Shown here one piece after another: positions 1,570 to 17,737 of a stretch of DNA of 64,000 nucleotides; position 1 is the stretch's first letter, and each line of letters opens with the position of its first letter. The position numbers and the translations under genes were made by a program. The notes beneath the pieces are model-generated. The model did not search any database, was not told the origin of the DNA, and saw only the letters and a program-made list of their open reading frames with translations. This stretch comes from Pseudomonadota bacterium (lineage in GTDB: Bacteria; Pseudomonadota; Gammaproteobacteria; Burkholderiales; JAJZUU01), in NCBI GenBank assembly GCA_021848325.1, contig JAJZUU010000007.1:2341-66340 (forward strand). The letters run 5' to 3'.

Positions 1570-1585
1570 AGCAAGAAAGGTGCCA
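1570..1585 (-). promoter_or_regulatory. Sigma-54 (-24/-12) promoter for resB
   Basis: Minus strand reads TGGCACCTTTCTTGCT, matching TGGCAC-N5-TTGC, 110 nt upstream of the resB ATG. Confidence 0.8.
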
Positions 1586-1694: not shown

Positions 1695-2327
1695 CTATTT
1701 CCCGTTTTCAGGATTCTTCCCGCCGTCCTCGCGCGATCGTCTGGCCGCGCCCGCGGGTTTCTTGGCCAGGGCCGCCTGCCACTCCCAGATGGCCGCGCGC
1801 GCCTTGCGCACGAAGGGGTCGGCATTGCTGGACAAATGGACGTAGGTGCGCATCGCCCCCAGGGCCCCTTCCAGGTCCTTCAGCCCCTCCAGGGACTCCG
1901 CCAGGCCGTAGTAGGCGTTGGCCTGCATCGGGCGCAGGTTGATGGCGGTCTGGAAGAAATCGCGGGCGATGTCGTAGCGCTTCAGGCCGATCATGGCAAA
2001 ACCCATGTTCACGTTGGCCTCGGGCATGTCGGGAGCCAGTTCCAGCAGGCGGTGCAGCGCCGTCGCGGCGTCGTCGTAGCGCCCCGCGTGCAGCATTACC
2101 ACGGCCTCCTTGAAGCGCTGATCGATCTCGGCCCGCCTGGCCTGGCTGGCATGCACCTCGGGCTCCATCACCGGGTCGGCCGGGCGCGTAACGGGGCCCG
2201 CCGCCGGCGGCCCTGCGGGGCCGGCCCCGTGGCCCGGCGAGGACGCCGTCCGCAAAATGCCCGCCACGCCGCCGGCGAAAACCACCAGCGCCAGCAAGAA
2301 CAGCCGGTTGCGCCACCAACCCGTCAT
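1695..2327 (-). CDS. Membrane-anchored TPR protein, probably a cytochrome c maturation accessory
   Basis: 210 aa; N-terminal hydrophobic segment, Pro/Ala linker, TPR helices (AMIGLKRYDIARDFFQTAINLRPMQANAYYGLA); ATG overlaps ccsA stop. Confidence 0.8.
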   Translation of the reverse strand: MTGWWRNRLFLLALVVFAGGVAGILRTASSPGHGAGPAGPPAAGPVTRPADPVMEPEVHASQARRAEIDQRFKEAVVMLHAGRYDDAATALHRLLELAPDMPEANVNMGFAMIGLKRYDIARDFFQTAINLRPMQANAYYGLAESLEGLKDLEGALGAMRTYVHLSSNADPFVRKARAAIWEWQAALAKKPAGAARRSREDGGKNPENGK

Positions 2328-3148
2328 ATCATCCCCTTATGGGGCGCCATGCTCACGAACGGCACCCCGAAAAAAGTCAGAAACGCCAATACGAACACGC
2401 CCAGGATCATCAATGCGCCCAACCGGGGCGAGATCGGGTAGCTCAGACGCAGGTGCAACGCCGCCGCCAGCGCCAGCCAGGTAACGAAGGCCCAGGTTTC
2501 CAGGGGATCCCAGGCCCAGTACCGGCCCCATGCGCCCTGGGCCCATACCGCCCCCGCGATCAGCATCAGGCTCTCGAATACCAGGGCCAGGGTCATGATG
2601 CGCCACGCCAGGGCATCCAGCGACACGTCCGGCGGCATGTCGCGAAACCAGGCTGAAAGACGCGTGCGCCGCAACCACATCACCCCCGCCAAACCGACCG
2701 CCAGCAGGCAGGTGCCGAGAAATACCTTGCCCATGGCCACGTGGGCCCACAGCCAGGGCGTATCGTAGGTCGGCGGCAATGGACCGCCCGCCGGCCGCAA
2801 CACCAGCAGCCACAGCCCCAGCAGCAGAATGACCGGAAGGACCACGACGGAGGTCGGCCGCAGCACCGGCAGCCGCCAATAGGCAAAGGCATAGACCACG
2901 CCGAGGCTGAATAAGTTGCTGAGCAGTATCTCGAACATGTTGAGGAACGGGCCGTGCCCGGTGCGCGCCCAGCGCGCGGCGATGCCGACGGAGACGAGCA
3001 CCAGGGCGGTGAGCAGCATGCCCAGCACGACCTTTTCCCGCTGTTGCCCCCGGGCAACCCCTGCCACCGCGACGCCGGCCGTGACGGCATAGGCGGCGAC
3101 GGCCATCCAGATCCAGGGCAGTTCGGGCGCGCGCGCCAGGGCGTTCAT
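2324..3148 (-). CDS. ccsA: Cytochrome c biogenesis protein CcsA/ResC (heme lyase, WWD domain)
   Basis: Start MNALARAP at 3148 (ATGA overlap with upstream gene); WLWAHV, WAQGAWGRYWAWDPLETWAFVTW, ALHLR; multiple TM helices. Confidence 0.9.
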   Translation of the reverse strand: MNALARAPELPWIWMAVAAYAVTAGVAVAGVARGQQREKVVLGMLLTALVLVSVGIAARWARTGHGPFLNMFEILLSNLFSLGVVYAFAYWRLPVLRPTSVVVLPVILLLGLWLLVLRPAGGPLPPTYDTPWLWAHVAMGKVFLGTCLLAVGLAGVMWLRRTRLSAWFRDMPPDVSLDALAWRIMTLALVFESLMLIAGAVWAQGAWGRYWAWDPLETWAFVTWLALAAALHLRLSYPISPRLGALMILGVFVLAFLTFFGVPFVSMAPHKGMI

Positions 3149-4149
3149 GTGTGCAAGGCCCCATGCCCGGCGGAAAAGCCGGCAGCCCGGCCGGTCCGCT
3201 CCGGGCCCGAAGACCCGAGCCGGCGCCAAAAGTGCCAGGCCAGCCCGCCCACGCCGGCCACCGCCACGACAAACAGCCACGGCAGGGTGGGATCGTAGAA
3301 TATCTTGTACCCCATCCAGGTGCGCAACTCGTCGAAACGCAGGCTGCCGCCCTCCAGGCGCGCCGTTTGTCCCGGCTTCAGCTCGATCCGTCGCCCACCC
3401 GAGGAAACGATCAGGACGCCGCTGCTGTCCTTCCGGTCCATGGTCCAGGCGGCATCCGCTCTGAGGGGGGTCTTGAGCCGCAGCCAGAACCTGATCTCCG
3501 CCCCCCCGGGCGGAGTCCATCTGTTGTCCTGCTTCCAGTCGAACAGTGGATAAGAGGGCATGTGGATCGCTCCGGTTACCGGCTTCCCGTGTTCCGGGAT
3601 CCAGGTAAGCAGGGGCGCAAAGCCCTTGTTGGAACTGGTGTAAAACCGGTAGCCATGCAGGATGAGCGGGTGGTCGTCGCCGACCACCATCGGCACCAGA
3701 CGCCCCGCGCCATCCGGGGCCAGCACCTGGCTGCGGGTGGTGGAACGGCTCAACTCCGGGCCGTAGTCCACGGTGAAAGGGCCCTGCACGAAGAAGACCT
3801 TGGAAAATCCCATGGGGTGCAGTGGGCCCTTGGCCAGGACCTGCACGTCGCCGGGCAGAAAAGCGCTGTCCTCCGTCACCTCCACCACCCCGTCCAGGTG
3901 AACCAGCCGCCCCACCGCCGCCAGGACGACGATCCCCAGCAGCGCCAGGTGGAACACCAGCAGCCCGCCCTGGCGGTTGATGCCCGGGTTGACCGCGATG
4001 GCGGCCAGCAGATTGACCGCCAGCAGGCCCAACGGGGCCACCAGCCACCAAAGGGGGGCGGCAGGGCGGTTGTAGCTCAGCAGCACCCCCGCGCACAGCA
4101 AGGCCATCCCCACCAGGGTGAGTCGGACGGAGGACAACAAACGCAACAT
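3145..4149 (-). CDS. Short ResB/CcsB-like cytochrome c biogenesis protein
   Basis: 334 aa; N-terminal TMs, LLVFHLALL His motif, VVGDDHPLILHGYRFY (ResB NxPL-like), C-terminal YDPTLPWL TM; coupled to ccsA. Confidence 0.75.
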   Translation of the reverse strand: MLRLLSSVRLTLVGMALLCAGVLLSYNRPAAPLWWLVAPLGLLAVNLLAAIAVNPGINRQGGLLVFHLALLGIVVLAAVGRLVHLDGVVEVTEDSAFLPGDVQVLAKGPLHPMGFSKVFFVQGPFTVDYGPELSRSTTRSQVLAPDGAGRLVPMVVGDDHPLILHGYRFYTSSNKGFAPLLTWIPEHGKPVTGAIHMPSYPLFDWKQDNRWTPPGGAEIRFWLRLKTPLRADAAWTMDRKDSSGVLIVSSGGRRIELKPGQTARLEGGSLRFDELRTWMGYKIFYDPTLPWLFVVAVAGVGGLAWHFWRRLGSSGPERTGRAAGFSAGHGALHT

Positions 4150-4153
4150 CCCG

Positions 4154-6637
4154 TCATGGTACGTTATTGCAGGCCTCGGTGCCAGACCACATCCAGAATA
4201 TCCCGGTCTGGCCGTTGCCCGGCGCCCCCACCGAGCCGCAGTTGCCGGCGCTCCAGTTGCCGCTTTTGGCGAAGGTCTTCACCTTCAGCACCGCCCGGTT
4301 GTAATAGGGCGGATTGGTGTAGCCGGCGGTGGTGTTGTTGCGCACCTGGGTCCCCGCCGCCAGCCCCCCTTCCGGACCCACGTCGTTCAGGTTCACCAGG
4401 AACGCCTTGTTCTTCCAGCCGTGGGGCACCGCCACGTGGCACAGGCTGCAGCGGAAGTTGGTCACTACCGCTGCGTGGTAGACGTGCCAGTTGGTGGTCC
4501 CGGCGCCGCCACCGCCGCCGCTGCCGCTGAAGCCGCTCTTGAGCACCGTCGGCGGATTGGGGTTGCCGTACTGGTTGTAGTCGTGGCACTTGAAACACAA
4601 GTCGCCGGGCGTCCCTTCCCCCGTCCCCGTCGTCTTGTCCCCGCTCCATGGCCCCTTCAGGATGAAGTTGTTGGTCGATCCGTGCGGCCCCCATGGCTGG
4701 CCCGTGCCGGGCACCACCGTCCCCGACGCCGTGTTGGAACCATGGCAGTCGCTGCAGTACATGGTCTCGTTACCCACGTTGGCGTTCCACGGGCTCAGCC
4801 ACAGGTTCGCGCTGGCGTTGCCCCGCACCGCCGGCGTGCGCCCGGTGTTCAGCATCACCGGGTGCCACGAGCGGTGGTTGTTGGTCTGGAAGTTGACCGT
4901 GTAGCCCTGCCCCGGCGGCACCCCGGCAAACGCCCCGGAGTCGGTGGTGGTCACTTCCCCCTGGTGGCTCACCGGCGACTGGAATTCCATCGCCTGGTTG
5001 GTGAATTGCAGCAGGCCGTTGGTGCCCGAGGGCGTCCCGCCCCCGGAGGAGCCCAGCATCGGCGGGGTGGTGCCGAAGCCGTAGTCGGAGTGGCATTTGA
5101 GGCAGATCTGGTATTCCCGGGTGACGTAGGATGCGGTCACGGTGGAGTCCACGCTCCCCCCCGGGTCCCCGCGCTTGAGGGTGTAGCTGGCGGGCAACGA
5201 CCCGAAGCTGTGGGCGCTGTAGTTGGGCTCCACCCCCCAGGTGCCCCGGAGCGCCCCGGAAGCGATGTTGCTGCCCAGGATGTGGGTGGACGTGGCGTCC
5301 GGACTGGCCAGGTTGCCGTAGAACACCTGGTTGCGGATGATCCGGTGCGGGTTGTGGCAGTCGGTGCATTCGGCGTGCCGGTTGGTGAGGTTGCCGAATC
5401 CCAGCAGGCTCCTCGATTCGATGAAGTCCGAGCCTTCATTGGTCGGGGCGTCGGCGTTGTAGGTCCCGATGTCATGCACCTCCATCCCCGCCGGCTGGTC
5501 GGTGCTGGTGATGGGCATGTGCCGCGGCAGGCTGAAGTCGTCCTGGATGTCGGCCACGTTGGTGGTGGGGGTGACGATGCTCTGGGCGCTGTTGGTGTGG
5601 CACTGGTAGCAGGTCTGCTCGATCGCCGAGTTGCCGCCGCTCTTGGGCACGGCGGTGCTGTCTGTGCCTTCCCGCAACAGGCGCCGCGCCCCTTGCACGG
5701 TGTGGGGGTCGTGGCAGTTCAGGCACGCCGCCTGCCAGACCTGGGTGCCGCTGGGGAATTCCCGCTGGGCGGCGGCGCTGGCGGTATAGGTCTCGTTGGC
5801 CACCAGCGGGTTGGCGTGGGCGGAGTAGGCCCAGGTCGGCCCCGCCTTGTCGTGACAGGCCAGGCAGATGGTGTCGCTGTTCGGGTTGAATGCGCCGCCG
5901 GTGGGCGCCGCCGCCTGCAGCCGGTTGGCCCGCAGGAATTTGATGTCCCCCAGGGTGGGGTCGGTGTCCCGAATGTGGGGGTCGTGGCAGGTGGTGCACT
6001 CCAGCTTGCCCGCTTCCAGCGGCAGCAGGGGTTTCGTTAGCGAGCCGGGCACCCGCGTGCCCACCGTGGTGCCGTCCGGCGCCCACAGCTCGCCGTCCTT
6101 GGACGCCAGGGTGCTGTCGTAGGTGAACGAGATGGGGTGGTCGTTGGTGAGGTTGACCCCGAGGTCGCGGGTGTAGCCGGTCAGCGCCCCGGCCCCGGTG
6201 GGCATGGTGCCCCCCACCCCGGTGCCGTTCATGGCTATGCTGGCCGGGCTCTGCCCGTTCAGCACGTCCACCGTGCCCAGCGCCATGGTGCCGTCGTGGC
6301 ACGACAGGCACAGCTTGGAATAACCGTCCGGCGCGGCTGCCAGCTCGGCGGGATTGGCGACCATGGAGCTGGAAAGGTACGGCGTGTAGGTGGACCCGGC
6401 CAGCTTGCGGTTCCACAGCGGCGCCTGGATCGGCTCCGCGCCGTGCGGCGTGTGGCAGAATACGCATATCTGCGATTCGCTCACCGCCGTCACGCTGCCC
6501 GTCCCGCTCACCGACAGGTTGTGCTTGGTGTTGCGGATGTCCGCAATCCGCGTCGCCAGCGCCAGCTCCGTCCCCGCCCACAGCAATCCAAGGCCCAGGC
6601 CCGCCGCAATAAACCAGGGGCCAGTTCTTCTGCGCAT
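4154..6637 (-). CDS. Undecaheme c-type cytochrome, copy 1
   Basis: 11 CxxCH (CVFCH, CLSCH, CTTCH, CLACH, CLNCH, CYQCH, CTDCH, CLKCH, CSDCH, CFKCH, CSLCH); signal peptide MRRRTGPWFIAAGL...ALA; start 6637 chosen by homology with copy 2 (track start 6664). Confidence 0.92.
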   Translation of the reverse strand: MRRRTGPWFIAAGLGLGLLWAGTELALATRIADIRNTKHNLSVSGTGSVTAVSESQICVFCHTPHGAEPIQAPLWNRKLAGSTYTPYLSSSMVANPAELAAAPDGYSKLCLSCHDGTMALGTVDVLNGQSPASIAMNGTGVGGTMPTGAGALTGYTRDLGVNLTNDHPISFTYDSTLASKDGELWAPDGTTVGTRVPGSLTKPLLPLEAGKLECTTCHDPHIRDTDPTLGDIKFLRANRLQAAAPTGGAFNPNSDTICLACHDKAGPTWAYSAHANPLVANETYTASAAAQREFPSGTQVWQAACLNCHDPHTVQGARRLLREGTDSTAVPKSGGNSAIEQTCYQCHTNSAQSIVTPTTNVADIQDDFSLPRHMPITSTDQPAGMEVHDIGTYNADAPTNEGSDFIESRSLLGFGNLTNRHAECTDCHNPHRIIRNQVFYGNLASPDATSTHILGSNIASGALRGTWGVEPNYSAHSFGSLPASYTLKRGDPGGSVDSTVTASYVTREYQICLKCHSDYGFGTTPPMLGSSGGGTPSGTNGLLQFTNQAMEFQSPVSHQGEVTTTDSGAFAGVPPGQGYTVNFQTNNHRSWHPVMLNTGRTPAVRGNASANLWLSPWNANVGNETMYCSDCHGSNTASGTVVPGTGQPWGPHGSTNNFILKGPWSGDKTTGTGEGTPGDLCFKCHDYNQYGNPNPPTVLKSGFSGSGGGGGAGTTNWHVYHAAVVTNFRCSLCHVAVPHGWKNKAFLVNLNDVGPEGGLAAGTQVRNNTTAGYTNPPYYNRAVLKVKTFAKSGNWSAGNCGSVGAPGNGQTGIFWMWSGTEACNNVP

Positions 6638-6638
6638 G
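4200..6638. repeat. 2.44-kb direct repeat unit A (pairs with 6873-9311)
   Basis: Offset 2673; shadow-frame translations identical in both copies; differences found at 4278-4279 vs 6951-6952 and 6622 vs 9295. Confidence 0.95.
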
Positions 6639-6814
6639 TGTCGCCCCGCTCCGAAATCTGGCATGCCAATCCGGCTTCGCCGGTCGGCCCACCCGTTATC
6701 TTAGCGTAACGGCACCGGGTCGGAAAACTTTAGCGACTTTGGGGCAAGGGAAAACCAAAAAGCGCCGGGCAGGACCCGCTGCAACCCGCCCGGCGCCTTC
6801 CACGGCGACTGCCG

Positions 6815-9310
6815 TCACGGCACGTTGTTGCAGGCCTCGCTGCCGCCGCCCATCATGCCGACCATCCAGGCAATCCCGGTCTGGCCGTTGCCCGGCGCCC
6901 CCACCGAGCCGCAGTTGCCGGCGCTCCAGTTGCCGCTTTTGGCGAAGGTCACCACCTTCAGCACCGCCCGGTTGTAATAGGGCGGATTGGTGTAGCCGGC
7001 GGTGGTGTTGTTGCGCACCTGGGTCCCCGCCGCCAGCCCCCCTTCCGGACCCACGTCGTTCAGGTTCACCAGGAACGCCTTGTTCTTCCAGCCGTGGGGC
7101 ACCGCCACGTGGCACAGGCTGCAGCGGAAGTTGGTCACTACCGCTGCGTGGTAGACGTGCCAGTTGGTGGTCCCGGCGCCGCCACCGCCGCCGCTGCCGC
7201 TGAAGCCGCTCTTGAGCACCGTCGGCGGATTGGGGTTGCCGTACTGGTTGTAGTCGTGGCACTTGAAACACAAGTCGCCGGGCGTCCCTTCCCCCGTCCC
7301 CGTCGTCTTGTCCCCGCTCCATGGCCCCTTCAGGATGAAGTTGTTGGTCGATCCGTGCGGCCCCCATGGCTGGCCCGTGCCGGGCACCACCGTCCCCGAC
7401 GCCGTGTTGGAACCATGGCAGTCGCTGCAGTACATGGTCTCGTTACCCACGTTGGCGTTCCACGGGCTCAGCCACAGGTTCGCGCTGGCGTTGCCCCGCA
7501 CCGCCGGCGTGCGCCCGGTGTTCAGCATCACCGGGTGCCACGAGCGGTGGTTGTTGGTCTGGAAGTTGACCGTGTAGCCCTGCCCCGGCGGCACCCCGGC
7601 AAACGCCCCGGAGTCGGTGGTGGTCACTTCCCCCTGGTGGCTCACCGGCGACTGGAATTCCATCGCCTGGTTGGTGAATTGCAGCAGGCCGTTGGTGCCC
7701 GAGGGCGTCCCGCCCCCGGAGGAGCCCAGCATCGGCGGGGTGGTGCCGAAGCCGTAGTCGGAGTGGCATTTGAGGCAGATCTGGTATTCCCGGGTGACGT
7801 AGGATGCGGTCACGGTGGAGTCCACGCTCCCCCCCGGGTCCCCGCGCTTGAGGGTGTAGCTGGCGGGCAACGACCCGAAGCTGTGGGCGCTGTAGTTGGG
7901 CTCCACCCCCCAGGTGCCCCGGAGCGCCCCGGAAGCGATGTTGCTGCCCAGGATGTGGGTGGACGTGGCGTCCGGACTGGCCAGGTTGCCGTAGAACACC
8001 TGGTTGCGGATGATCCGGTGCGGGTTGTGGCAGTCGGTGCATTCGGCGTGCCGGTTGGTGAGGTTGCCGAATCCCAGCAGGCTCCTCGATTCGATGAAGT
8101 CCGAGCCTTCATTGGTCGGGGCGTCGGCGTTGTAGGTCCCGATGTCATGCACCTCCATCCCCGCCGGCTGGTCGGTGCTGGTGATGGGCATGTGCCGCGG
8201 CAGGCTGAAGTCGTCCTGGATGTCGGCCACGTTGGTGGTGGGGGTGACGATGCTCTGGGCGCTGTTGGTGTGGCACTGGTAGCAGGTCTGCTCGATCGCC
8301 GAGTTGCCGCCGCTCTTGGGCACGGCGGTGCTGTCTGTGCCTTCCCGCAACAGGCGCCGCGCCCCTTGCACGGTGTGGGGGTCGTGGCAGTTCAGGCACG
8401 CCGCCTGCCAGACCTGGGTGCCGCTGGGGAATTCCCGCTGGGCGGCGGCGCTGGCGGTATAGGTCTCGTTGGCCACCAGCGGGTTGGCGTGGGCGGAGTA
8501 GGCCCAGGTCGGCCCCGCCTTGTCGTGACAGGCCAGGCAGATGGTGTCGCTGTTCGGGTTGAATGCGCCGCCGGTGGGCGCCGCCGCCTGCAGCCGGTTG
8601 GCCCGCAGGAATTTGATGTCCCCCAGGGTGGGGTCGGTGTCCCGAATGTGGGGGTCGTGGCAGGTGGTGCACTCCAGCTTGCCCGCTTCCAGCGGCAGCA
8701 GGGGTTTCGTTAGCGAGCCGGGCACCCGCGTGCCCACCGTGGTGCCGTCCGGCGCCCACAGCTCGCCGTCCTTGGACGCCAGGGTGCTGTCGTAGGTGAA
8801 CGAGATGGGGTGGTCGTTGGTGAGGTTGACCCCGAGGTCGCGGGTGTAGCCGGTCAGCGCCCCGGCCCCGGTGGGCATGGTGCCCCCCACCCCGGTGCCG
8901 TTCATGGCTATGCTGGCCGGGCTCTGCCCGTTCAGCACGTCCACCGTGCCCAGCGCCATGGTGCCGTCGTGGCACGACAGGCACAGCTTGGAATAACCGT
9001 CCGGCGCGGCTGCCAGCTCGGCGGGATTGGCGACCATGGAGCTGGAAAGGTACGGCGTGTAGGTGGACCCGGCCAGCTTGCGGTTCCACAGCGGCGCCTG
9101 GATCGGCTCCGCGCCGTGCGGCGTGTGGCAGAATACGCATATCTGCGATTCGCTCACCGCCGTCACGCTGCCCGTCCCGCTCACCGACAGGTTGTGCTTG
9201 GTGTTGCGGATGTCCGCAATCCGCGTCGCCAGCGCCAGCTCCGTCCCCGCCCACAGCAATCCAAGGCCCAGGCCCGCCGCAATAAACCAGGGGCTAGTTC
9301 TTCTGCGCAT
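6815..9310 (-). CDS. Undecaheme c-type cytochrome, copy 2
   Basis: 831 aa, same 11 CxxCH; C-terminus GIAWMVGMMGGGSEACNNVP vs GIFWMWSGTEACNNVP in copy 1; start overlaps the 3' end of the upstream NHL gene. Confidence 0.92.
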   Translation of the reverse strand: MRRRTSPWFIAAGLGLGLLWAGTELALATRIADIRNTKHNLSVSGTGSVTAVSESQICVFCHTPHGAEPIQAPLWNRKLAGSTYTPYLSSSMVANPAELAAAPDGYSKLCLSCHDGTMALGTVDVLNGQSPASIAMNGTGVGGTMPTGAGALTGYTRDLGVNLTNDHPISFTYDSTLASKDGELWAPDGTTVGTRVPGSLTKPLLPLEAGKLECTTCHDPHIRDTDPTLGDIKFLRANRLQAAAPTGGAFNPNSDTICLACHDKAGPTWAYSAHANPLVANETYTASAAAQREFPSGTQVWQAACLNCHDPHTVQGARRLLREGTDSTAVPKSGGNSAIEQTCYQCHTNSAQSIVTPTTNVADIQDDFSLPRHMPITSTDQPAGMEVHDIGTYNADAPTNEGSDFIESRSLLGFGNLTNRHAECTDCHNPHRIIRNQVFYGNLASPDATSTHILGSNIASGALRGTWGVEPNYSAHSFGSLPASYTLKRGDPGGSVDSTVTASYVTREYQICLKCHSDYGFGTTPPMLGSSGGGTPSGTNGLLQFTNQAMEFQSPVSHQGEVTTTDSGAFAGVPPGQGYTVNFQTNNHRSWHPVMLNTGRTPAVRGNASANLWLSPWNANVGNETMYCSDCHGSNTASGTVVPGTGQPWGPHGSTNNFILKGPWSGDKTTGTGEGTPGDLCFKCHDYNQYGNPNPPTVLKSGFSGSGGGGGAGTTNWHVYHAAVVTNFRCSLCHVAVPHGWKNKAFLVNLNDVGPEGGLAAGTQVRNNTTAGYTNPPYYNRAVLKVVTFAKSGNWSAGNCGSVGAPGNGQTGIAWMVGMMGGGSEACNNVP

Positions 9311-9311
9311 G
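6873..9311. repeat. 2.44-kb direct repeat unit B (pairs with 4200-6638)
   Basis: See unit A. Confidence 0.95.
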
Positions 9312-10385
9312 CTTCATACCCGTCAAGTACTGGAAGATGACCACCCTTCCGTTGAACATGTCCGCCACATAGATCCGGTTATGCGGATCAGTCCACGCAC
9401 CGGCGGGCAGATAAAATTCGCCGATCTTCTTGCCGGTGCCGCCGATGGGCATCAGGAACCTCCCGTCCCGGTTGAAGACCAGCAGGTAGTCGTGCATGGA
9501 CTCGACCACGTATACATTGTTATCGCTATCCACCGCGACGCCTTTTGGGCGCACCATGTTCCCCACGTACAGGCCGCGCTCGCCGAACTGCCGCAAAAAA
9601 CCGCCGTGCTCGTCCAGCACCTGAACCCTGGAATTGAGCGTGTCGGCGACATAGAGCTCGCCGTCCGCCAAGGCCAGGTGAGTGGGGAAATTGAATTCAC
9701 CCGGGCCCGTGCCGCGCCGGCCGATCACATCCAGCAGCTTGCCGGCGTCGTCGAACACCTTGATATCATGGGCATAGGTGTCCACCACGAACACCCGCCC
9801 CCGTTTCCCATCGCGGGCAAGCCCGGTGGGCCATTTCAGTATCCCCTTGCCGAAGCTGCCTACCGGATTGCCCGCCGAATCCAGCCGAATCACTTCCCCC
9901 AGCTTGGCATCCGCCACCAGGATCTGGCCGTTGGGGCCCGGGGCGATGCCCACGGGGGACTCGAAGCGCACGTTTTCCTTCGCCTGGTCCCACACATCCA
10001 GCTTCCCGGCAACGCCATCGAACACGAATACCGCGCGGCGGCTGGCGTCCGTAACAAGGATCCTGCCCTGCCCGTCCACCATGCCGGATACGGGGCGCTG
10101 CAGCACCACGGGCTCCCGGTTGCCGGCGGTGAGGCCCACCAGCCAGTACAGGAATTTCACGCCGGCGCTGCGCTGCTGCTCGTTCTCGTCGTGGAAGTTG
10201 TTCTCGCCGGTCAGTTCGCCCACATATGCGTAGCGGGGCGTCTCCGGCGGCTGGGGCCACACCTTCCTGACCTGGCCGGCGGAGCCATCCGGGTCGAGAC
10301 GCATCACGTAGTGCGTGTCGGCGCATCCGGAAAGCAGCAAGAAACATGCCACCAGCCAGCCCAATCGGAGATATCGATGGTTCAA
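9294..10385 (-). CDS. NHL-repeat beta-propeller lipoprotein
   Basis: Lipobox LLSGC; NHL repeats (RPVSGMVD, SPVGIA, WPTGLA, GTGPGEFNFPTHLA, VRPKGVAVD, FYLPAGAW). Confidence 0.88.
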   Translation of the reverse strand: MNHRYLRLGWLVACFLLLSGCADTHYVMRLDPDGSAGQVRKVWPQPPETPRYAYVGELTGENNFHDENEQQRSAGVKFLYWLVGLTAGNREPVVLQRPVSGMVDGQGRILVTDASRRAVFVFDGVAGKLDVWDQAKENVRFESPVGIAPGPNGQILVADAKLGEVIRLDSAGNPVGSFGKGILKWPTGLARDGKRGRVFVVDTYAHDIKVFDDAGKLLDVIGRRGTGPGEFNFPTHLALADGELYVADTLNSRVQVLDEHGGFLRQFGERGLYVGNMVRPKGVAVDSDNNVYVVESMHDYLLVFNRDGRFLMPIGGTGKKIGEFYLPAGAWTDPHNRIYVADMFNGRVVIFQYLTGMKHAQKN

Positions 10386-17721: not shown

Positions 17722-17737
17722 AGCACATAGCGTGCCA
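17722..17737 (-). promoter_or_regulatory. Sigma-54 (-24/-12) promoter for the tetraheme gene
   Basis: Minus strand TGGCACGCTATGTGCT; GG and GC at canonical spacing; 135 nt upstream of ATG. Confidence 0.72.

Follow-up and report, generated by a model that had tools for sequence, protein, structure and literature searches.

How two adjacent cytochrome genes can be identical, base for base, over nearly all of their length when their ends differ strongly is the question raised by a locus on contig JAJZUU010000007.1 of a Pseudomonadota bacterium (Burkholderiales, lineage JAJZUU01; assembly GCA_021848325.1). The whole 64,000-nucleotide stretch that was analysed (contig positions 2,341 to 66,340) is referred to here as the window, and all coordinates follow window numbering. 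The locus consists of two tandem genes of the uetJ/occP type, each coding for an undecahaem cytochrome c, within a uet/occ electron-transfer cluster, an identification that follows from haem count and gene order. The upstream gene is called uetJ-a and the downstream one uetJ-b (copies 2 and 1, respectively, of a first-pass annotation made from the sequence alone). By comparing the two genes with each other, with independent assemblies of the same species, with a second strain and with related loci, we reach the view, which we hold to be highly probable, that this is an old tandem duplication in which gene conversion has held the core identical and the C-terminal loop has escaped.

UetJ was described from the uetABCDEFGHIJ-ccsAB-nrfG cluster of 'Ca. 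Tenderia electrophaga' (bioRxiv 10.1101/2022.05.06.490989) and OccP from the occ cluster of 'Ca. Dechloromonas occultata' (bioRxiv 10.1101/695007), with one undecahaem gene per cluster in both accounts. UetJ/OccP has been proposed to form the outermost conduit for electrons in an extracellular electron-transfer system that is widespread, genetically untested and linked to cathode oxidation, to the oxidation of Fe(II) and to the reduction of Mn(III). The literature searched held no mention of duplication or gene conversion of uetJ/occP, nor of its recurrence in three lineages as reported below; the mechanism itself is textbook, and what is new is its occurrence in a Uet/Occ undecahaem cytochrome.

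An identical core between older ends

When positions 4200-6638 and 6873-9311 were compared base by base at an offset of 2673, mismatches were found only at 4278, 4279 and 6622, that is, three differences across the 2439 bp of the repeat and none within its 2342-bp core; the homogenised tract thus makes up 94% of the gene (Table 1). The first-pass annotation had held that the two genes differ only near their extremities, and the full alignment bears this out down to the particulars, which were a Lys/Val exchange at 4278-4279, a Gly/Ser exchange at 6622, overlap of one copy with the stop codon of the upstream NHL gene, a gap of 4 nt between the other copy and resB, and tails that differ even in their choice of codons. 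Both open reading frames lie on the minus strand, carry 11 CxxCH motifs each and begin with an N-terminal hydrophobic leader (uetJ-b has an alternative in-frame ATG upstream, at 6664, which would yield 836 aa). The two proteins differ at residue 6 (Ser in uetJ-a, Gly in uetJ-b), at residue 787 (Val and Lys) and in the last ~15-19 residues. The A of the uetJ-a Ser codon is the middle base of the TAG stop (9294-9296) of the NHL gene, so conversion of this site to the G of uetJ-b would destroy that stop.

With the two strains ~1.1% apart, a stretch of 2342 bp should hold about 26 differences; the absence of any rules out chance as the source of the core identity. The tails tell of a different age: they are separated by four synonymous and four non-synonymous codon differences and by an indel of four codons (12 nt), and since the synonymous differences (ATA/ATT, AAT/AAC, GTA/GTG and CCA/CCG) have had time to accumulate there, the ends are much older than the core. 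The flanks of the two copies share no homology.

The tandem structure in independent assemblies

Core identity and copy number of the pair (two or more) are as they appear in assembled contigs. Other public assemblies of the same species were found through the exact NHL and ResB proteins, the rationale being that an assembler that does not resolve a repeat should break k bases past the last context-specific site. In at least nine of these assemblies the contigs break exactly k bases past the last copy-specific site: four MEGAHIT k141 contigs (L175, L176, L177 and L180) stop after 157 nt of uetJ (site 16 + 141), L178, a Logan k31 contig, stops after 46 nt (16 + 30), four others (L173, L174, L179 and L181) end at 29 nt (start of the shared sequence + 30), and on the opposite side L183 starts at window position 4420 (4279 + 141). 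With k = 141 the same reasoning predicts a junction contig running from 7093 to ~6482, whose first product is the last 92 residues of uetJ-a. This contig exists: L184 (613 bp, ERZ27237442, MEGAHIT) corresponds to window 7093-6481 with one mismatch, at 6769. As this independent contig runs without a break from tail 2 through terminator and spacer into the second uetJ, the tandem structure is real and is not the artefact of one assembler. No record was found for the predicted Logan junction product (55 aa) or the predicted MEGAHIT core product (780 aa).

The core itself was recovered in a further Logan contig from another run and another assembler (L182), which begins at the first base past the Ser/Gly site and is 100% identical to window 6621-3022, a span of 3600 nt that includes the whole core. 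In any case the cores are far more alike than the tails, because no assembler could have merged copies that had diverged by more than a few percent.

The same-species MEGAHIT and Logan assemblies, and the metagenome-assembled genomes (MAGs) derived from them, break at uetJ (L173-L181, L183 and L184), and the gene is truncated or missing in the MAGs GCA_027438255.1, GCA_027357355.1 and GCA_027446125.1. In MAGs from assemblies of this type uetJ will thus often be absent, cut short or annotated as a pseudogene, and its copies will be under-counted.

Concerted evolution between two strains

A variant strain of the same species is represented in both gene contexts by contigs from different samples. 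Its uetJ in the spacer/tail-1/resB context is found in L088 (SRR22746125), which is 98.8% identical to the window, and its uetJ in the uetI context in L170 (ERZ27237183; also in L171 and L172), which reaches 2079 nt into the gene. These two contigs share 11 of 11 core differences from the window (positions 74, 315, 401, 526, 975, 1397, 1499, 1572, 1944, 2022 and 2038, counted from the uetJ ATG) and, compared with each other, diverge only within the signal peptide, at positions 26-33 (SPWWIFAG versus SPWFIAAG). Between the strains uetJ shows 11 synonymous and 14 non-synonymous codon differences and two indels; between the two cores of the window it shows none. Paralogues within a strain are therefore closer than orthologues between strains and share strain-specific substitutions, the pattern that characterises concerted evolution by gene conversion or by equivalent unequal exchange. 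A duplication that postdated the split of the strains would need the same spacer and the same tails to have been created twice. We also considered L088 as a sign of a strain with a single copy; this was rejected, as the 51 nt upstream of its ATG are spacer and not uetI.

Interlocus gene conversion and concerted evolution of bacterial paralogues are known from tufA/tufB of Salmonella and from the tandem duplication omcB/omcC of Geobacter sulfurreducens. The uetJ pair resembles that type in having paralogues closer than orthologues, sharp tract edges and divergent ends that escape, and differs from it in belonging to another family, in that only a short C-terminal loop escapes (together with the signal peptide in other lineages), and in its recurrence in three lineages.

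Recurrence in other lineages

About 3% of related loci carry more than one uetJ, and in two of them, L040 (a Thioalkalispiraceae MAG) and L120 (a Joint Genome Institute (JGI) marine metagenome contig), the order is again uetI, uetJ-a, spacer, uetJ-b, resB. The spacers measure 172 or 267 nt, and the pairs have perfectly identical cores of ~2200 bp (L040) and ~1800 bp (L120) between divergent signal peptides and divergent tails; in L120 the Gly hinge differs as well. The spacer of L040 still holds a decayed copy of the 3' end of uetI (the last ~115 nt, at ~80% identity, with an alignment score of 96 against 18 ± 2 for shuffled sequences). With a uetI remnant at ~80% identity beside a core at 100%, the L040 duplication must be far older than its core identity, and the locus makes an independent argument, the second, for conversion. 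A common ancestry of the three homogenised pairs finds no support in their spacers, since those of the window, L040 and L120 are unrelated to one another.

Among GTDB representatives, 13 of 401 genomes of the order have uetJ, in tandem in this genome only, and there is no close relative among the representatives; JGI metagenomes gave 64% identity at most. A different arrangement is seen in L169:131-16886 (ENA ERZ925371, k127), which reads NHL, uetJ, propeller, uetJ, uetJ, uetJ, resB, ccsA, TPR, the inserted propeller being a 712-aa, lactonase-like protein.

The C-terminal loop

Alignment of 54 family members shows two invariant cysteines, C800 and C827, an almost invariant pair, W815 and M816, and an invariant terminal Pro; the difference between the isoforms sits in the loop between the WM pair and the last Cys. 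This loop has six residues in 100 of 116 homologues, with the consensus RDSSEN, and reads WSGTEA in uetJ-b, VGMMGGGSEA in uetJ-a and YGTEG in the variant strain. The position just ahead of WM holds D, N, S, T or G in nearly every other homologue (F or M in 0/116); in the three homogenised pairs, downstream copies have F there and upstream copies M or A, a weak hint of a common origin. Both the loop and the Gly hinge differ between the two strains too, and they are the fast-evolving parts of an otherwise constrained protein. Met-rich insertions recur in the variable parts of the protein (window 4154-4240 and 6815-6910; L088:2140-2530): VGMMGGG in tail 2, GGMMAG in the Gly hinge of the variant strain, and, elsewhere, MWMMM in L040 and VMWMMQ in the fourth uetJ of L169 (J4).

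An AlphaFold model built with 54 sequences has a mean predicted local distance difference test (pLDDT) score of 60, with residues 22-171 and 819-831 below 50. The two Cys that bound the C-terminal module may form a disulfide and the loop may be exposed, as the first-pass annotation proposed for the two tips, in a region where the model's pLDDT is below 50. Residues ~18-222 of UetJ, which carry four haems, match OmcE, the nanowire subunit of G. sulfurreducens, in a profile comparison with the PDB (7TFS, E 7.5e-35; 9YUQ, 4.4e-25). UetJ is thus like OmcE in its N-terminal ~220 residues and unlike it in having seven more haems, a Gly-rich hinge and the Cys-bounded C-terminal module.

Weighing the explanations

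The evidence on assembly bears most directly on the possibility that two tandem genes exist whose cores differ at a modest number of sites that were lost when the assembler popped bubbles. The source genome is in 119 contigs with an N50 of 37 kb, so that a 2.3-kb repeat could be crossed only by loop traversal or by long reads, and all three pairs with identical cores come from metagenome assemblies. We nevertheless judge homogenisation by assembly improbable, given that a different assembler working on a different run returned the entire core at 100% within the 3600 nt of L182, that the two variant-strain contigs, though taken from separate samples and separate gene contexts, carry the same base at each of the 11 diagnostic sites, and that divergence beyond a few percent is not mergeable, so gene conversion would be needed anyway. 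The first-pass annotation had named an assembly artefact as a real alternative; for the tandem structure the other assemblies largely exclude it, and what stands of it is that a few core differences could be hidden. A chimera of strains, in which no genome has two copies and the contig joins alleles of co-existing strains, is the least credible of the explanations: the source is indeed a metagenome bin and at least two strains occur across samples, but the window and L184 both show tail 2, terminator, spacer and uetJ start as continuous, which places two adjacent uetJ genes in one molecule, and contigs break at the predicted repeat boundaries in many samples.

The same annotation had offered two histories for the pair, single-crossover integration of a second allele and gene conversion between old paralogues. 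The first would be a recent Campbell-type event in which a circular DNA with a promoter, a uetJ allele, a terminator and a foreign tail entered the resident gene by one crossover, and its geometry is apt, as spacer, core, tail 2 and terminator add up to one unit of exactly 2673 bp and joining the outer ends restores the ancestral operon. We consider it very unlikely all the same. The incoming allele would have had to combine an identical core with a tail that had diverged strongly; no gene for mobility or replication lies in the 2.7-kb unit; the spacer, copy-1 and resB context is already present in a strain 1.2% diverged; the strain-specific substitutions common to both contexts are left unexplained by a single event; and L040 shows a plain tandem duplication that includes the 3' end of uetI. 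Gene conversion between old paralogues, by comparison, is upheld by the old tails and spacer and by the 11 core substitutions common to both contexts of the ~1% diverged strain.

Several observations weigh against an old duplication homogenised by conversion. Assemblers that pop bubbles could hide a few differences between the copies, and the window, L040 and L120 are all likely to be short-read assemblies with the loop traversed. Two Logan contigs, L182 and L088 (the latter beginning 51 nt upstream of the ATG), cross the 3' boundary into tail 1 unbroken. Low coverage at the terminator hairpin, with a tail 2 stub shorter than the tip-clipping length, is suggested as the cause; alternatively the junction may be rarer, that is, the population may contain one-copy cells. 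In the L072 pair, apparently from another assembler by its contig name, the two genes are 80% identical throughout, and the four uetJ paralogues of L169 have diverged to 55-80% identity, so homogenisation is frequent and not obligatory. Finally, the spacer of the window has no significant similarity to uetI or resB, so that the origin of the junction can no longer be read: local alignments of the spacer with the 3' end of uetI and the 5' end of resB scored no better than shuffled sequences, both as DNA and as protein in one reading frame, and a resemblance seen by eye (W.D..RI..D.F.GR) was dropped when alignments did not beat shuffles.

A probable course of events and its implications

Under the old-duplication reading, a second uetJ would have been inserted by tandem duplication into an ancestral, tightly coupled uetI-uetJ-ccsB arrangement. 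A single, tightly coupled uetJ is the ancestral state, given that 145 of 162 related loci have an NHL gene immediately upstream of uetJ and 128 of 162 a ResB-like gene immediately downstream; the first-pass proposal that the 5' end of uetJ-a joined to the 3' end of uetJ-b rebuilds the ancestral tight operon fits this family-wide synteny. One core would then have been overwritten by the other again and again through homologous recombination, either as interlocus gene conversion or as unequal exchange to the same effect, so that the 2.3-kb haem-binding core evolves in concert. The conversion tract would end at the start codon for want of homology farther upstream, and at the 3' end, in the last ~15-19 codons, either the 12-nt indel and strong divergence would block exchange or selection would keep two loops. 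The predicted outcome is two isoforms with the same haem core and, save one residue, the same signal peptide, differing in the variable loop between WM and the last invariant Cys of the Cys-bounded C-terminal module. uetJ-a would be read with the uet operon and end at the terminator, and uetJ-b would be coupled to ccsBA.

Whether both genes are used as a pair is a further matter, and here we are much more hesitant. It is conceivable, though rather doubtful, that the pair is a maintained two-isoform system in which selection keeps Phe/Trp-rich and Met/Gly-rich Cys-bounded C-terminal loops on a shared haem wire, independently or anciently in at least three lineages. If this were true, the loops might tune contact with a partner, a mineral or a metal, and the repeats would allow the dosage of uetJ to change, by deletion to one terminator-less hybrid gene or by amplification. 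Apart from that reading, the combination of a shared haem core with a differing C-terminal loop (elsewhere also a differing signal peptide) in three lineages points to the loop as the place where functional difference is tolerated or wanted, and it offers a concrete target for mutagenesis and proteomics.

Gene neighbourhood and expression signals

The gene order is uetI (NHL), uetJ-a, terminator and spacer, uetJ-b, ccsB (resB-like), ccsA and TPR. As in the published UetJ and OccP, the proteins have 11 CxxCH motifs and no other domains, two NHL genes precede them, and ResB/CcsA System II genes and a TPR gene follow (the Tenderia and Dechloromonas proteins were compared by description, without direct alignment). 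Also as in uet/occ, there are triheme c7 genes, a 684-aa protein at the position of the UetC barrel and a parvulin upstream; unlike the published clusters, the present one has two tandem undecahaem genes separated by a terminator. On uetJ-b (99% identical to uetJ-a) the Pfam matches are Paired_CXXCH_1, cytochrome c7/c3 and MtrC-like domains, and in both genes upstream of uetJ-a they are NHL propeller domains; TIGR01905 was matched on uetJ-a. The CcsA-type gene matches TIGR03144 at 5e-36, below that model's cut-off. Farther upstream, same-species contigs carry three c7-type cytochromes, the 684-aa protein (haem-free and with no Pfam match), the parvulin and a tetrahaem protein. UetJ homologues number 5907 matches at 50-64% identity, with 60-64% identity to proteins annotated as 'doubled CXXCH / cytochrome c3 family'; homologues at 50-64% come from MAGs of Gallionellaceae, Thioalkalispiraceae, Ramlibacter and Rhodocyclaceae, groups with reported Uet/Occ.

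A terminator scan places the inner stem of the hairpin that follows uetJ-a at 6778-6766. Promoter searches for uetJ-b found no sigma-70 and no sigma-54 consensus in the spacer, and uetJ-b and ccsBA may be expressed by read-through or from an unrecognised promoter. Elsewhere in the window the sigma-54 consensus TGGCAC-N5-TTGCW has a perfect match at 1570-1585 (-) and matches with one mismatch at 10336-10351 (-) and 17722-17737 (-), and the total of matches is not above chance.

Table 1. Features of the tandem uetJ locus, in window coordinates
Feature	Position	Strand	Remarks
uetI-like six-bladed NHL beta-propeller	9294..10385	-	Pfam NHL 9.9e-26 and DUF5128; TAG overlaps uetJ-a codon 6
uetJ-a	6815..9310	-	undecahaem cytochrome c, 831 aa; tail IAWMVGMMGGGSEACNNVP; start overlaps uetI stop
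Identical core, upstream copy	6953..9294	-	2342 bp; base-by-base comparison
Divergent tail 2 with stop codon	6815..6872	-	Met/Gly-rich loop ahead of last Cys
Intrinsic-terminator-like GC-rich hairpin and T-run after uetJ-a	~6751..6798	-	stem of ~15 bp, then UUUUUGGUUUU (centroid fold)
Spacer between uetJ-a and uetJ-b	6638..6814	-	junction independently present in MEGAHIT contig L184
uetJ-b	4154..6637	-	undecahaem cytochrome c, 827 aa; tail IFWMWSGTEACNNVP; stop 4 nt from ccsB/resB ATG (4149)
Identical core, downstream copy	4280..6621	-	2342 bp; base-by-base comparison
Divergent tail 1 with stop codon	4154..4199	-	Trp-rich loop
Short ResB-like (System II, CcsB-type) haem-handling gene	3145..4149	-	Pfam ResB 1.5e-10
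CcsA-type cytochrome c assembly gene	2324..3148	-	274 aa; Pfam Cytochrom_C_asm; also called in L182 and L183
TPR protein (NrfG-like position in uet cluster)	1695..2327	-	Pfam TPR families; published uet order

Other repeats in the genome

The genome holds a second tandem pair of near-identical segments, on contig C100 (5403-6882 and 7697-9176; 1480 bp at 99.87% identity), which covers the N-terminal parts of two genes for methyl-accepting chemotaxis proteins. Smaller tandem repeats are found on C42 (763 bp, 99.3%) and C40 (562 bp, 98.8%). Near-identical segments are also shared between the far end of the window's contig (C97) and contig C94: 1372 bp (C97:64227-65598 and C94:3949-5320) and, in inverted orientation, 698 bp (C97:66889-67586 and C94:2808-3505). 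A repeat, or a mobile element lying where the contig ends, may account for these shared segments.

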